Source: Geotalea daltonii FRC-32 (GTDB lineage Bacteria > Desulfobacterota > Desulfuromonadia > Geobacterales > Geobacteraceae). Taken from it: a stretch of DNA of 32,000 nucleotides. Below the pieces are notes generated by a model, which was not told the origin of the DNA, ran no database searches, and saw only the letters and a program-made list of their open reading frames with translations. Each line of letters opens with the position of its first letter. The stretch's first letter is position 1. Where the stretch lies: the NCBI RefSeq assembly GCF_000022265.1, contig NC_011979.1, positions 420,001-452,000 of the forward strand, in the 5' to 3' direction. Shown here in pieces: positions 5,370-16,099 of the stretch. The position numbers were made by a program, and so were the translations under genes.

Positions 5370-6545
5370 CTACCGTTCGCCCATTGATTCGGTGAGGGTC
5401 TTGCGCAGCGGCTTCAGGAGGTAATCGAGCACGGTCCGATCCCCGGTGCGGATATCCACCTGGGCGGTCATGCCGGGGAGAATTTCCAGGGTCCTTCCGG
5501 TTGTGGTCTTCACCGGTTTGGCGCTGGTGGCAACATGAACCCGGTAATAGGTCAGCTCGCCGGTTTTTCCCTCTTCCTTGATGGTATCCGCACTCACATA
5601 GGAAACCGTCCCGTCCACGGAGCCGTACATGGTATAGTCAAAGGCGTCGAAGCGGATGGTGGCCTTGAGGTCAGGCTTCACCAGGGCAATATCTGAGGGC
5701 CTGATTTTCGCCTCCACGATCAGGACATCATCCAACGGCACGATCTGTAGCAGTTCCTCCCCGGCACGCAGCACCCCCCCCTGGGTGGTGACCCGTACGT
5801 TCTTTACGATCCCCGACACCGGCGATCTCATGACACTGTCTGCCAGCTGCTGGGCGCGGGGCGTTCTTACCTGTTCGTTCTGGCCGATATCATCCTCGGT
5901 CTTGGCCAGTTCCGCCCTTGCGTCCTGGTAGTATTTGTTCTTGCGGTTTATCAGCTGCGCTTCGGCATCATTCAGGGCACGCTCCGCCTTGATGACCTCG
6001 GAGCGGCTCACGTCGCCGGTCTTTGCCAGCTCCGCCACCAGGCGCGCATCCTCTCTGGCCAATCTGACCGCCACGCCCAGTGTGCGCAGTTCCTCGTCCA
6101 GGCTCTGACGCTTCTGGGTGAAAAGGGCCTTCTGGACATCCAGCAACTCGGGAAATCTTCCCAGGTTGGTTGGAAAACGTATTTCCGATGCCCCGGTAAC
6201 CTCTGCCCGCAGTCTGGCTGCCTGGCCATGCAGGGCGGCAAGCCGGGAATCAAGCTCCATGACCTGGGCGGCAAAGCGGGTCTGATCCAATACCGCAAGC
6301 ACCTGTCCCTGCTTGACTGAATCCCCTTCCCGCACCTTCAGTGATTTAAGCACCCCCCCGTCGACCGCCTGAATCACCTGAACTCTGCTGGTGGCGATGA
6401 CCGTACCGGCGCCCCTTGCACTCTGGTCGATCCGGTAGTGGGAAGACCAGAAAACAGTGACCGCCAGAGCGATAATGAGCACCCACAGAATCAGTGAATG
6501 GCCGCCGAGAGCGGGTCTTTTACCAGGTTCGGACAAGTGCGGCAT
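5370..6545 (-). CDS. HlyD-family type I secretion periplasmic adaptor (membrane fusion protein)
   Basis: It has a single N-terminal TM helix (LILWVLIIALAVTVFW). A lipoyl-like motif (GVLKSLKVREGDSVKQGQVLAVLD) and a long coiled-coil follow. The C-terminal beta-barrel (GMTAQVDIRTGDRTVLDYLLKPL) is typical of HlyD/LapC. The gene starts 3 nt after the ABC gene stop. Confidence 0.9.
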   Translation of the reverse strand: MPHLSEPGKRPALGGHSLILWVLIIALAVTVFWSSHYRIDQSARGAGTVIATSRVQVIQAVDGGVLKSLKVREGDSVKQGQVLAVLDQTRFAAQVMELDSRLAALHGQAARLRAEVTGASEIRFPTNLGRFPELLDVQKALFTQKRQSLDEELRTLGVAVRLAREDARLVAELAKTGDVSRSEVIKAERALNDAEAQLINRKNKYYQDARAELAKTEDDIGQNEQVRTPRAQQLADSVMRSPVSGIVKNVRVTTQGGVLRAGEELLQIVPLDDVLIVEAKIRPSDIALVKPDLKATIRFDAFDYTMYGSVDGTVSYVSADTIKEEGKTGELTYYRVHVATSAKPVKTTTGRTLEILPGMTAQVDIRTGDRTVLDYLLKPLRKTLTESMGER

Positions 6546-6548
6546 ATA

Positions 6549-8711
6549 TCAGGCCCCCACCGTCTGTACCAGCCGCCGTCCCCGGCGCGGCTGCTGCTGA
6601 AGCACTTCTTCAGGTTTGCCGTCGGCTATGACCCGGCCCCGGCCCATGAGGATAACCCGATTGGCGAGCACCGCCAGCCGGGGCCGATGGGTGGCGATGA
6701 GGAGAATATCGGTGGGACGTACCGCCTCCCTTAAAGCCTCGATGATCCGGTTTTCTGATTCCAGGTCCAGTGAGGAGGTGGGTTCATCCAGCAGCCAGAC
6801 CCGCGGCTGTGCCAGGAAGAGCCGGGCCAGCCCCACCAGCTGCCGCTGCCCTCCCGACAGTCCTGTGCCCCCTTCACTGATCTCAAGCTCCATGCTGCGC
6901 GGGTTGTCGGCGGCGATGCGGTCGATGCCGAGCAGTTGGGCCACCTCCAGCAGTTTCCCGTCACTGGCTCCCCCGCCCAGAAGCAGGTTGCTCTTCAGTG
7001 TGCCCTTGAAGAGGTGAATGTCCTGGGGGAGGTAGCCGATCCGTTCGTTGATCACCTGGCTGTCCAGCTCCCAGATATCAGCCCCTCCCAGCCGCACCTG
7101 CCCTTCGCTCGGCCGGTACAACCCGGCCGCCACCTTGAGGAGGGTGGATTTGCCGCAGCCGTTGGGTCCCAGCAGGACCACCCGGTCTCCGGCGGCGAAG
7201 TGGAGCTCGGGCAACTGCAGGCGCATGACCGGCGAGTTCGGGTAGGCGAAGCGGACTCCTTCCAGATCGAGCCGGTCGGTGAGTGTTTCGGGGGCGAGCA
7301 GGCTCCCGTCCTCCGGGCGGCCGGTTTCCAGGGCCAGTAGCCGGTTGACCATGGCCAGGGATTCGCGGACGTGGTACCACTGCACCTGCAACTGGACCCC
7401 TTGGGCAATGGGAGCGATGACCCGCCCCCCCAGGATGGTACAGGCGATGAGCCCGCCGGTGGTCAGGTCTCCCGCCTCGATCCGCGTCACCCCGACGACT
7501 ATGGCCGCCACATAGGCCAGGGTGCCCAGGGTGCCGGTGGTCGTCAAGGTGGTACTGGTAATGGTCCTGCTTTGCAGCGCATGTGCCCCCATCGTCGCCG
7601 TGATGGTCCGCCACAATTCGGCAAAGCGCCAACCGGCGCCCGCTGCCTGGATGGTTTCCGCCCCCTGGATCATCTCCACCAGCAGCCCGTGACGCTCGTG
7701 CCCGCGGGTGATTTCCTGGCGGGCCAGCCTGCGCAGCTGTTTCTGGGCAACCCATCCCCATACCAGGGCGATGACCAACAGCACAAGGTACACGATGCTT
7801 ACCCTGCCGCCGATAGCGGCAATGAGGCCAATGAACAAGAGGCAGAACGGCAGGTCGGCCAGGGCAAAGACGATGGTCGAAGAGAAAAAACCGCGTGCCG
7901 GTTCCAGGCCGCTCATCTGGGCCGCGAGCGACCCCAGGCTGCGCGGCCGCGCATCCAGCCGCAGCCCCATGACATGCTCGAACAACCGCTGGGAGACCGC
8001 CAGGTCCACCTGCTTCGCCAGGGTGTCCACGATGCGTGCACGGATGTGCTTCAGCATCCAGTCCACCGCCACCACTATGGCCATGCCGACACTGAGCGCC
8101 GTCAGGGTCGTATAGGCCATGGTCGGCACCACCCGGTCGTAGACCTGCATGGAAAAAAGAGAGCTGGCAACCGCCAGCAGGTTGACGGCGGCGGTGGCGA
8201 TCAACACCTCCACCAGCCACCGTTTTTCTTGCAGCACCTCCTGCAACAGCAGCTGTGCCGCACTGCTTTTCAATACCTCCCCCACGGCGGGGTCGGGAGT
8301 CTCCACCTGCAGCCACAGGACCGGCGCATCCTCCAGCTCCGCCACCGGCACCGGTCCCGCGCTTCCCTTCTCTCCGGCAAGGGTTACGACGCGCCCGCTG
8401 CCATGGGAGGCGATTTGCCACTCCCCTCCATGCCAGACCAGCACCGGCAGATGCCGTCGGTCCAGTCGGCTCCAGCGCAGCTGGACAACCTGCACTCCAT
8501 TTTTCTGGACAGTCCGGAGGATGCCCATGAGGCGTTCGGCAGGTAGTATATCCGCATCCTCAGGCTGCATGGTGCTGCACGCCTCAGCCAGCGCCCCCTT
8601 CGGGACAGGCAGACCATGCATGAGCAGCAGTTTTCCCAGTACCCCCGACGTGATTGCCGTTGCCTGGGGTCCTTTCAATCCATCCGAATTTGCCATGCCA
8701 GCATTCTCCAT
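6549..8711 (-). CDS. Type I secretion system permease/ATPase (HlyB/LapB-like ABC exporter) with N-terminal C39-like domain
   Basis: Walker A GPNGCGKST, signature LSGGQRQ, Walker B VWLLDEPTSSLD and H-loop IATHRP are present. Six TM segments lie in the middle. An N-terminal domain of about 140 aa precedes the TM domain. The ATG at 8709-8711 shares its A with the TGA of the upstream TolC-like gene; the ORF-track TTG at 8714 is less likely. Confidence 0.9.
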   Translation of the reverse strand: MENAGMANSDGLKGPQATAITSGVLGKLLLMHGLPVPKGALAEACSTMQPEDADILPAERLMGILRTVQKNGVQVVQLRWSRLDRRHLPVLVWHGGEWQIASHGSGRVVTLAGEKGSAGPVPVAELEDAPVLWLQVETPDPAVGEVLKSSAAQLLLQEVLQEKRWLVEVLIATAAVNLLAVASSLFSMQVYDRVVPTMAYTTLTALSVGMAIVVAVDWMLKHIRARIVDTLAKQVDLAVSQRLFEHVMGLRLDARPRSLGSLAAQMSGLEPARGFFSSTIVFALADLPFCLLFIGLIAAIGGRVSIVYLVLLVIALVWGWVAQKQLRRLARQEITRGHERHGLLVEMIQGAETIQAAGAGWRFAELWRTITATMGAHALQSRTITSTTLTTTGTLGTLAYVAAIVVGVTRIEAGDLTTGGLIACTILGGRVIAPIAQGVQLQVQWYHVRESLAMVNRLLALETGRPEDGSLLAPETLTDRLDLEGVRFAYPNSPVMRLQLPELHFAAGDRVVLLGPNGCGKSTLLKVAAGLYRPSEGQVRLGGADIWELDSQVINERIGYLPQDIHLFKGTLKSNLLLGGGASDGKLLEVAQLLGIDRIAADNPRSMELEISEGGTGLSGGQRQLVGLARLFLAQPRVWLLDEPTSSLDLESENRIIEALREAVRPTDILLIATHRPRLAVLANRVILMGRGRVIADGKPEEVLQQQPRRGRRLVQTVGA

Positions 8712-15938: not shown

Positions 15939-16071
15939 GACCATCCTCCTCAATGCATGGAAGCTCGTAGAAGGCCTACGTAGCGGACAAAAAGCTTTAA
16001 CCGAGCCGGTCACCCAAAGGAGTGAGCGATAAGGGTGACGATAAAATTAAAATAGTATTAGTTAGAAACAA

Positions 16072-16099
16072 ATAATAAAGTGTTAATACTAAATGTCAA
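16072..16099 (-). promoter_or_regulatory. Candidate sigma70-type promoter of the cargo/T1SS operon (TTGACA-N16-TATTAT)
   Basis: On the minus strand, TTGACA (16094-16099), a 16-nt spacer, then TATTAT (16072-16077). It lies in an AT-rich island of about 90 nt within otherwise GC-rich DNA. It implies a leader of about 125 nt before the ATG at 15938. Confidence 0.45.

Follow-up and report, generated by a model that had tools for sequence, protein, structure and literature searches.

A 32-kb stretch of the genome of Geotalea (Geobacter) daltonii FRC-32, referred to as the window and numbered by its own positions throughout, contains five contiguous open reading frames (ORFs) on the minus strand. 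In the order of reading, they encode a cadherin-repeat protein designated here as the cargo, a sulfotransferase (ST) carrying tetratricopeptide repeats (TPRs), and the outer-membrane protein (OMP), ABC exporter, and HlyD adaptor of a type I secretion system (T1SS). Judged from sequence comparisons, the notable result appears to be a conserved, uncharacterised cargo-sulfotransferase module, in which ST is found beside T1SS cargo genes in several phyla. The window operon is probably devoted to type I secretion of a cadherin-repeat surface adhesin, and its dedicated cytoplasmic ST would sulfate the unfolded cargo prior to export. More tentatively, we suggest that a widespread and so far undescribed sulfation pathway dedicated to T1SS adhesins might exist, in which a TPR-fused enzyme similar to tyrosylprotein sulfotransferases (TPSTs) would perform cytoplasmic O-sulfation before export by means of a superhelix like that of O-GlcNAc transferase (OGT). 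Sulfation would then be a common surface modification in environmental Proteobacteria, Desulfobacterota, Myxococcota, and cyanobacteria and not a curiosity of RaxX from Xanthomonas. The five genes are:

12549 to 15938, minus strand: cargo, 1129 residues, Cadherin PF00028, public record ACM18737.1
9970 to 12549, minus strand: TPR-sulfotransferase, 859 residues, PF13469 and TPRs, ACM18736.1
8711 to 9970, minus strand: TolC-family outer-membrane channel, 419 residues, PF02321, signal peptide
6549 to 8711, minus strand: T1SS ABC exporter, 720 residues (ATG 8711) or 715 residues (ATG 8696), ABC_membrane and ABC_tran
5370 to 6545, minus strand: HlyD-family periplasmic adaptor, 391 residues, TIGR01843

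The same five minus-strand ORFs had been listed in an earlier reading of this DNA (the original prediction); they are present at these coordinates, and profile searches agree with their labels as cargo, sulfotransferase, OMP, ABC, and HlyD. The start codons of cargo, ST, OMP, and HlyD are also those of the public records ACM18737/36/35/33.

The sulfotransferase, the cargo, and the export machinery

The ST protein, which is 100% identical to ACM18736.1, matched the family Sulfotransfer_3 (PF13469) with 164 bits at a cut-off of 27, and TPRs were detected on both sides of this domain. In an AlphaFold model (predicted local distance difference test, pLDDT, 82.5), about 550 of the 859 residues belong to TPRs, and three parts are discernible:

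11128 to 12447, minus strand: TPR arm, ST residues 35-474 (AlphaFold model)
10330 to 11097, minus strand: sulfotransferase domain of alpha/beta type, ST residues ~485-740 (AlphaFold model)
10039 to 10317, minus strand: C-terminal TPRs, ST residues 745-837 (AlphaFold model)

The best fold matches to the whole model were the TPR superhelix of OGT, full-length OGT, and SPINDLY (SPY). For the catalytic domain, TPSTs were the nearest solved relatives, namely 8w5z (E 2.9e-12), TPST2 (E 5.3e-9), and TPST1 (E 1.3e-8). By alignment on TPST, the PRSGTT sequence (R493) corresponds to the 5'-phosphosulfate-binding (5'-PSB) loop, E514 to the catalytic Glu99 of TPST2, and K574 to Lys158. No substitution of these three residues or of S607 is seen among 17 diverse members, which are 51-85% identical to the window ST. 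Three classes of residues are essential in sulfotransferases, the Arg of 5'-PSB, a catalytic base, and the Ser of the 3'-phosphate-binding (3'-PB) motif (10.1101/149930), and by this scheme all three are present in the window ST as R493, E514, and S607. No signal peptide was found in ST, and action in the cytoplasm, where 3'-phosphoadenosine 5'-phosphosulfate (PAPS) is made, would therefore be expected. Since ST is related to TPSTs, tyrosine would be the most likely acceptor. In public data, the ST domain is represented by 9,960 clusters at 50% identity (E up to 1e-30). Many relatives contain two to six ST-domain copies in one protein of 1000-2800 residues, such as P0246 (2492 residues, four stretches) and P0253 (2819 residues, six).

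The cargo has an isoelectric point of 4.4 and contains neither Cys nor a Sec or other N-terminal signal, which in composition would suit a T1SS substrate. It matched Cadherin PF00028 with 167.8 bits in four stretches, and matches to PF23592, PF17803, and a tandem-95 repeat were also obtained. RTX nonapeptides were not detected, as there was no PF00353 hit and no GGxGxD or relaxed match in the 1129 residues. Four regions follow each other:

First ~110 residues of the cargo, minus strand: low-complexity N-terminal region, preceding the hydrophobic segment
15534 to 15602, minus strand: Gly/Ala-rich hydrophobic segment GGWWLLGGAGLAAVATGIGLAFS, cargo residues 113-135, with a di-alanine at 124-125
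14229 to 15425, minus strand: four cadherin-type repeats, cargo residues ~172-570 (PF00028, PF23592, PF17803)
12552 to 14213, minus strand: three tandem copies of ~185 residues, cargo residues 576-1129 (sequence repeats)

In each of the ~185-residue copies, a D-x-N/D-G loop, a GFG(A/S)DD motif, and a VDFV-like end are present. The ends read ...QQVVDFVHLPE, ...GGLVDFVWPEN, and ...FDQVMFVDSGAGPA, of which the latter alone is terminal, and the last copy is presumed to carry the C-terminal secretion signal. Cargos from other ST-linked loci have C-terminal domains homologous to this one, and in such cargos equivalents of the hydrophobic segment follow N-terminal regions of 110-160 residues. Models for retention modules, the BapA prefix, and T1SS C-terminal targets from Pfam and NCBIfam matched neither the window cargo nor five complete related cargos. 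The N-termini of the related cargos may be similar to the BapA/LapA prefix, which we take as a lead unconfirmed by Pfam or NCBIfam.

The remaining three genes are predicted to specify the components of a T1SS, an ABC protein, an HlyD-family membrane fusion protein, and a TolC-family outer-membrane factor. The OMP starts with the signal peptide MAGWCRALLVCSLSLPLLPLPLSAQ and matched PF02321 (OEP) in two stretches with 91.9 bits (cut-off 22), while the 130 bits reached with TIGR01844 are under the cut-off of 225 for this model. The HlyD adaptor matched TIGR01843 with 321 bits (cut-off 208.65). In the ABC exporter, PF00664 (ABC_membrane) and PF00005 (ABC_tran) were identified; the best NCBIfam model was TIGR03375 (LssB type) with 610 bits, under its cut-off of 693 and at profile positions 122-692 only. 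HlyB aligns with the exporter over residues 155-706 and nowhere before residue 155. For the N-terminal 165 residues, no profile match by sequence was obtained and PF03412 gave no hit, no homologs were retrieved when the N-terminal 196 residues were the only query, and a profile of this domain from 22 loci had no sequence match in the PDB. A structural model of residues 1-165 (31 homologs, pLDDT 86.5) matched the peptidase domains of PCAT1, LahT, and ComA with a template modelling (TM) score of ~0.5 and a probability of 1.0, defining one further feature:

8217 to 8711, minus strand: C39-like domain, ABC residues 1-165 (predicted structure, fold search)

At the catalytic positions, which were assigned by position only, neither a Cys where the first core helix begins nor His93 is conserved; W98 is invariant. 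On the strength of the model, we interpret the domain as C39-like but inactive, comparable to those of HlyB and LapB. Homologs of the window ABC exporter are labelled LapB by JGI.

Gene neighbourhoods in related genomes

To cover related genomes, 185,579 species-representative genomes, one per species, were scanned. ST relatives were present in 524, and the best-scoring 80 loci of these were examined. In 27 of the 80, the genes for ST, OMP, ABC, and HlyD follow each other in this order on the same strand and are tightly packed, the ABC proteins being 47-93% and the HlyD proteins 56-98% identical. The arrangement was detected in Geobacteraceae, Oceanospirillum, Marinobacter, Vibrio, Colwellia, Psychromonas, Undibacterium, Mariprofundaceae, Desulfatiglans, and Myxococcota, spreading over several proteobacterial classes (with many Gammaproteobacteria), Desulfobacterota, and Myxococcota. 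The gene order, whose conservation the original prediction had left to comparative genomics, is not scattered in related genomes, and ST>OMP>ABC>HlyD is kept across several phyla, a synteny that gives the strong argument against a chance arrangement. In 12 further loci, ST is located beside an unrelated pair of ABC and HlyD genes, the products of which are 26-30% identical.

Unbiased clustering of all ORFs from the 80 loci revealed the same families as recurrent neighbours, ABC in 51 loci, OMP in 41, HlyD in 40, and cadherin/Big cargos in 37. Less frequent were sensors or regulators (16 loci), adenosine 5'-phosphosulfate (APS) kinase (13), and Calx-beta giants (7); no glycosyltransferase, LapG, or LapD was among the recurrent neighbours. 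For 76 loci, the window included, sequence upstream of ST was available, and in at least 40 of them the gene directly upstream encodes a large, acidic, Cys-poor protein of the cadherin/Big, Calx-beta, or RTX type. Unclassified proteins of equal composition are found at this place in several more loci. The pairing of cargo and ST holds also in loci without a transporter within 10 kb, and it is retained where the order is permuted, as in a metagenomic relative (OMP>ABC>HlyD>cargo>ST) and in Marinomonas (OMP>cargo>ST>ABC>HlyD>APS kinase). Furthermore, ST subfamilies track the class of the cargo. The conserved core therefore seems to be the adjacency of cargo and ST and not the position of ST ahead of the transport genes.

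The C-termini of the ST-linked cargos are class-specific, with ...LWSGxW...TSQGLA, the Geobacter-type ...FDQVVFVDSG.., and ...VEFV/IVFV tails, and those of the proteins encoded upstream of ST look like T1SS signals in their sequence. Many of these cargos (L038, L044, L050, L060, L068, L072-L079, and others) share an extreme C-terminal motif, ...LWSGxW...PN...Y.T.MPAGILTSQGL(A/V). Among the curated models scanned, the LWSGxW...TSQGL(A/V) motif had no match.

The junctions between ST, OMP, ABC, and HlyD are tight in nearly all of the 27 loci. The one-base overlap of cargo and ST genes is a trait of Geotalea. According to the original prediction, the modifying enzyme ahead of all three transport genes argued for stoichiometric co-production of cargo, modifier, and channel. 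This is not supported, because a stop/start overlap suggests translational coupling and not equal amounts, because the gap from cargo to ST mostly amounts to ~50-400 nt in relatives, and because permuted loci and cargo-ST pairs without transporter exist.

Genes for PAPS synthesis are part of some of these operons. In two relatives, the operon is closed by genes for CysD and a CysN-CysC fusion, which together make PAPS. The regions concerned, including a GT4 glycosyltransferase gene preceding ST in L012, are 8597-9781 and 17067-19810 in L012 and 7824-10615 in L084. The description of the window operon as self-contained applies to a T1SS with its own OMP, but it has to be qualified, since relatives have PAPS-synthesis genes in the operon and the window has none. 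In the draft sequence of Geotalea toluenoxydans JCM 15764 (L028), cargo, ST, and ABC match in fragments only, while the flanking genes are 97-98% identical; either frameshifts in the draft assembly or decay of the operon could account for this.

An orthologous T1SS without ST is found in G. sulfurreducens PCA (L083; AE017180.2, ~276-298 kb), where the order is giant cargo, OMP, ABC (65% identical), and HlyD. Together with locus L087, in which orthologous OMP, ABC, and HlyD genes are likewise present without ST, it provides a natural minus-ST comparison. The giant cargos of these two loci, with cadherin, Calx-beta, and RTX domains, comprise 5899 and 6924 residues, respectively. In contrast to the window, no ST gene is placed between cargo and OMP in G. 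sulfurreducens, and the cargo C-terminus is of the classic IEKIDLGG type. Because the orthologous system of G. sulfurreducens is devoid of ST, the enzyme appears to be an optional add-on.

Proposed pathway, alternative functions, and known systems

The pairing of cargo with ST, PAPS genes that are occasionally recruited, and the intact catalytic residues make it probable that ST sulfates the T1SS substrate before export, and the recurrence of the pairing across many bacterial groups suggests that secreted adhesins are sulfated. In the pathway proposed for the window, transcription would start near 16064 and yield one mRNA for cargo, ST, OMP, ABC, HlyD, and possibly an S10-like peptidase encoded downstream, and the one-base stop/start overlaps would favour translational coupling. 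The cargo, devoid of a Sec signal, would be unfolded in the low-calcium cytoplasm, where the TPR superhelix of ST could hold the extended polypeptide as in OGT, and the TPST-like catalytic domain would move sulfate from PAPS onto hydroxyl side chains, most likely those of tyrosines. The inactive C39-like domain of the ABC exporter and the C-terminal signal domain of the cargo would then engage the ABC-HlyD-TolC channel. The cargo would exit with its C-terminus first and fold outside on calcium, and its N-terminal region and the Gly/Ala-rich hydrophobic segment may retain it at the cell surface.

To our knowledge, what is known of protein tyrosine sulfation in bacteria comes essentially from a single system, RaxST and RaxX of Xanthomonas. 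In a literature search, with subscription-only literature outside its scope, no account linking a TPR-sulfotransferase with T1SS adhesins was found, and the RaxST work alone surfaced. If the proposal is true, sulfation of secreted adhesins would be common, and the added fixed negative charge could alter binding to minerals, metals, calcium, hosts, or other cells. It would bear on the attachment of Geobacter to Fe(III) oxides and electrodes. It would also represent a second kind of modification of T1SS substrates before export, alongside acylation of the HlyC type, and, in its combination of TPRs with an enzyme, a bacterial equivalent of OGT.

Several observations weigh against sulfation of the adjacent cargo. 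C-terminal alignments revealed no acceptor-site motif common to all cargo classes and no universally conserved Tyr or Ser, and tyrosines near the C-terminus are not conserved among the cargos. No PAPS-synthesis gene is located within the 32-kb window. About one third of the 80 loci, some of them on truncated contigs, have no transporter or recognisable cargo beside ST, and the 80 loci were taken as the best-scoring of the 524 and not at random. A GT4 glycosyltransferase gene, and not a cargo gene, immediately precedes ST in the Geobacteraceae locus L012. Finally, the CurM sulfotransferase, which acts on acyl-carrier-bound substrates, nearly equals the TPSTs as a relative of the ST domain (E 3.2e-9).

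The latter two observations would also fit an enzyme that sulfates something other than protein, for example a glycolipid or a glycan, be it on the surface or attached to the adhesin, and that is encoded next to a T1SS only since both serve the cell surface. A weak profile match of ST to NoeE, the Nod-factor sulfotransferase, points in the same direction. We regard such an acceptor as unlikely, because glycosyltransferases are not recurrent in the neighbourhoods, where only cargo, ABC, OMP, HlyD, APS kinase, and regulators recur, and because the constant partner of ST is the T1SS-type protein encoded directly upstream. Moreover, the best sequence relatives of ST are protein-tyrosine sulfotransferases, and its TPR superhelices on either side are similar to the ones in OGT and SPY, both of which modify proteins.

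With ~550 of its 859 residues in TPRs on both sides of the catalytic domain, ST could mainly be a cargo-specific cytoplasmic chaperone or targeting adaptor which keeps the adhesin unfolded for the exporter, with catalysis being secondary or absent. Secretion chaperones are commonly TPR proteins, weak profile matches to LcrH/SycD and SctY were obtained, and the gene order and tight packing with the transporter genes would fit. A role of this kind is nevertheless improbable: the PAPS-binding and catalytic residues are invariant even in members with only 51-85% identity to the window ST, PAPS-synthesis genes have been recruited into these operons, and the orthologous T1SS of G. sulfurreducens and that of L087 work without ST.

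It is very unlikely that ST acts on a target other than the adjacent cargo, for example on part of the secretion apparatus or on cellular proteins without relation to it. In the 27 loci ST is indeed packed more tightly with OMP, ABC, and HlyD than with the cargo gene, but it adjoins cargo-like genes even in the absence of a nearby transporter and in the permuted locus, and its subfamilies follow the class of the cargo. In addition, a cytoplasmic PAPS-dependent enzyme would not reach OMP or the large part of HlyD that lie in the periplasm or the outer membrane. One-base and four-base overlaps are indeed common in bacterial operons, and scans for promoter- and terminator-like sites gave about the shuffled level, but compact gene packing without any functional link can practically be dismissed, being already disfavoured by synteny across phyla and the co-occurring PAPS genes.

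Sulfation of the cargo prior to export has its closest precedent in RaxST-RaxAB. The raxX-raxSTAB genes of Xanthomonas oryzae, together with raxC and raxPQ, serve the production and type I export of a tyrosine-sulfated peptide (10.1101/149930; PMC4216712; PMC4646787). In both cases, the gene for a PAPS-dependent, TPST-like sulfotransferase is found beside genes for an ABC exporter, an HlyD-type adaptor, and an exported substrate, and the cytoplasmic sulfation before export that takes place in rax is proposed likewise for the window operon. PAPS-synthesis genes are required in rax, and they are inside the operon in some relatives of the window locus. The substrates are different, as RaxX is a double-glycine-leader precursor of 60 residues, cleaved by RaxB through an active C39 peptidase, whereas the window cargo is an adhesin of 1129 residues and the C39-like domain of its exporter lacks the catalytic Cys and His. 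RaxST is reported without TPRs (none are mentioned in 10.1101/149930), whereas ~550 TPR residues flank the catalytic domain of the window ST, and raxC, the TolC gene, is located elsewhere, whereas the window OMP gene is in the operon. Most RaxST homologs are reported to be unlinked to raxA/raxB homologs (10.1101/149930).

The original prediction had compared the operon, on account of its own OMP, with Lap/Bap-type adhesin systems, in which LapA is exported by LapE/LapB/LapC and controlled by LapG/LapD, with DvhA as the adhesin in Desulfovibrio (PMC10990149). The resemblance stands in general terms with respect to the large, acidic, repeat-rich adhesin, the ABC exporter with its inactive C39-like domain and LapB-labelled homologs, the HlyD adaptor, and the dedicated TolC-like channel. 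The di-alanine of the window cargo at 124-125, located in a Gly-rich segment after an N-terminus of ~110 residues, may also be comparable to those at 108-109 in LapA and 106-107 in DvhA. The features that define Lap systems were not detected: the cargo has no RTX repeats and no match to a retention-module model, and neither the LapG protease nor the cyclic di-GMP (c-di-GMP) receptor LapD/DvhD was found in the window or among the recurrent neighbours of the 80 loci. No Lap system is known to have a sulfotransferase.

In the hlyCABD operons for RTX toxins, the cytoplasmic HlyC modifies the unfolded T1SS substrate and is encoded together with HlyA, the exporter HlyB, and HlyD. The window operon is similar in that the gene for a modifying enzyme is combined with those for substrate and exporter. 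It differs since HlyC is an acyl-ACP-dependent transferase acylating lysines and not a sulfotransferase, its gene precedes that of the cargo, the cargo is an RTX toxin, and TolC is borrowed from elsewhere. OGT and SPINDLY ranked first both in the fold search with the ST model and, among natural sequences, in the search with its TPRs. Like these enzymes, ST combines a long TPR superhelix with a catalytic domain that acts, or in the case of ST would act, on extended polypeptides. Fold and chemistry of the catalytic domains are unrelated, those of OGT and SPINDLY being devoted to glycosyl transfer (GT41), so that the catalytic parts are analogous and not homologous.

Transcription unit and surroundings of the operon

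Two further features may belong to the transcription unit:

16072 to 16099, minus strand: sigma-70-like promoter TTGACA-N16-TATTAT, 11/12 match
3740 to 5329, minus strand: S10-like serine carboxypeptidase with signal peptide, possible sixth gene (profile search)

The TTGACA-N16-TATTAT sequence pointed out in the original prediction is present at 16099-16072 and constitutes the best sigma-70-like match in 3400-16400 (11/12). Both hexamers are invariant in three Geotalea species, which counts little because the whole 360-nt upstream region is 91% identical among them, and the number of promoter-like sites in the scan overall was not in excess of that expected from shuffled sequence (3 versus 3.0). 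The implied leader from the promoter to the ATG at 15938, which is preceded by GAGGAGGA, would comprise ~125 nt, and no small ORF is found between promoter and cargo. A riboswitch in the leader, for instance one for c-di-GMP, was ruled out by the lack of an Rfam match, and the predicted fold is ordinary compared with expectation (z = -0.71). A terminator-like hairpin in the leader (16012-15998) was rejected as well, its T-run not being conserved in Geotalea sp. SG265. Terminator-like sites inside the operon are weak and in slight excess, with 17 found and 10.9 +/- 3.4 expected from shuffled sequence.

The cargo/ST, ST/OMP, and OMP/ABC overlaps all read TGATG with one shared base (12549, 9970, and 8711), and ABC and HlyD are separated by 3 nt (TGA-TAT-ATG). 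Hence, of the junctions given in the original prediction, the 3-nt gap and one TGATG were correct, while the two junctions described as ATGA are TGATG, too. The OMP/ABC overlap depends on the uncertain choice of the ABC start codon. The ATG at 8711 is without a Shine-Dalgarno sequence, and that at 8696 is located 9 nt after GGAG (region 8694-8713, minus strand) and would leave a 14-nt gap instead. An independent gene call begins ABC at ATG 8696, the public gene call likewise does not use 8711, and the exact 720-residue product starting there is absent from the protein collection.

The five genes of the predicted operon were found as described, but their number may be too low, as a sixth gene on the same strand, that of the S10-like peptidase (5329-3740), had been overlooked. 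It starts 40 nt past the HlyD gene with no terminator found in between, and hcp, the next gene, is preceded by a promoter-like sequence of its own. The peptidase could trim the secreted cargo. As a downstream neighbour of HlyD, it is kept in the Geotalea loci L002 and L028 only and was therefore left out of the conserved system.

Upstream of the operon, a polytopic membrane protein of 344 residues is encoded (16293-17327, minus strand), for which no Pfam or NCBIfam match was obtained. A 43%-identical homolog is specified ~770 nt downstream of ST in a Methylocucumis genome (L025, 11434-12177) with no T1SS nearby. Between the membrane-protein gene and the operon promoter, a 9-bp hairpin (GAGGCTGATGG...) followed by a T-run (16256-16279) is fully conserved in the three Geotalea species; it reads as an intrinsic terminator on the plus strand only.

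Two further gene pairs of the window appear to be unrelated to the operon. A radical-SAM protein gene adjoins one for a DUF4130 protein (17680-19802, plus strand), and a MglA/MglB-like pair consists of a small Ras/Arf-like GTPase and an adjoining Roadblock/LC7 protein (20096-21237, minus strand). Over 20000-29000, the GC content falls from ~0.60-0.67 to 0.47-0.55, and housekeeping genes are located there, namely those for pyruvate:ferredoxin oxidoreductase (PFOR), recR, dnaX, and part of a UvrD-type helicase. Two tRNA genes and the gene for a small signal recognition particle (SRP) RNA are found at 19972-20044, 27948-28046, and 28104-28191, all on the minus strand.

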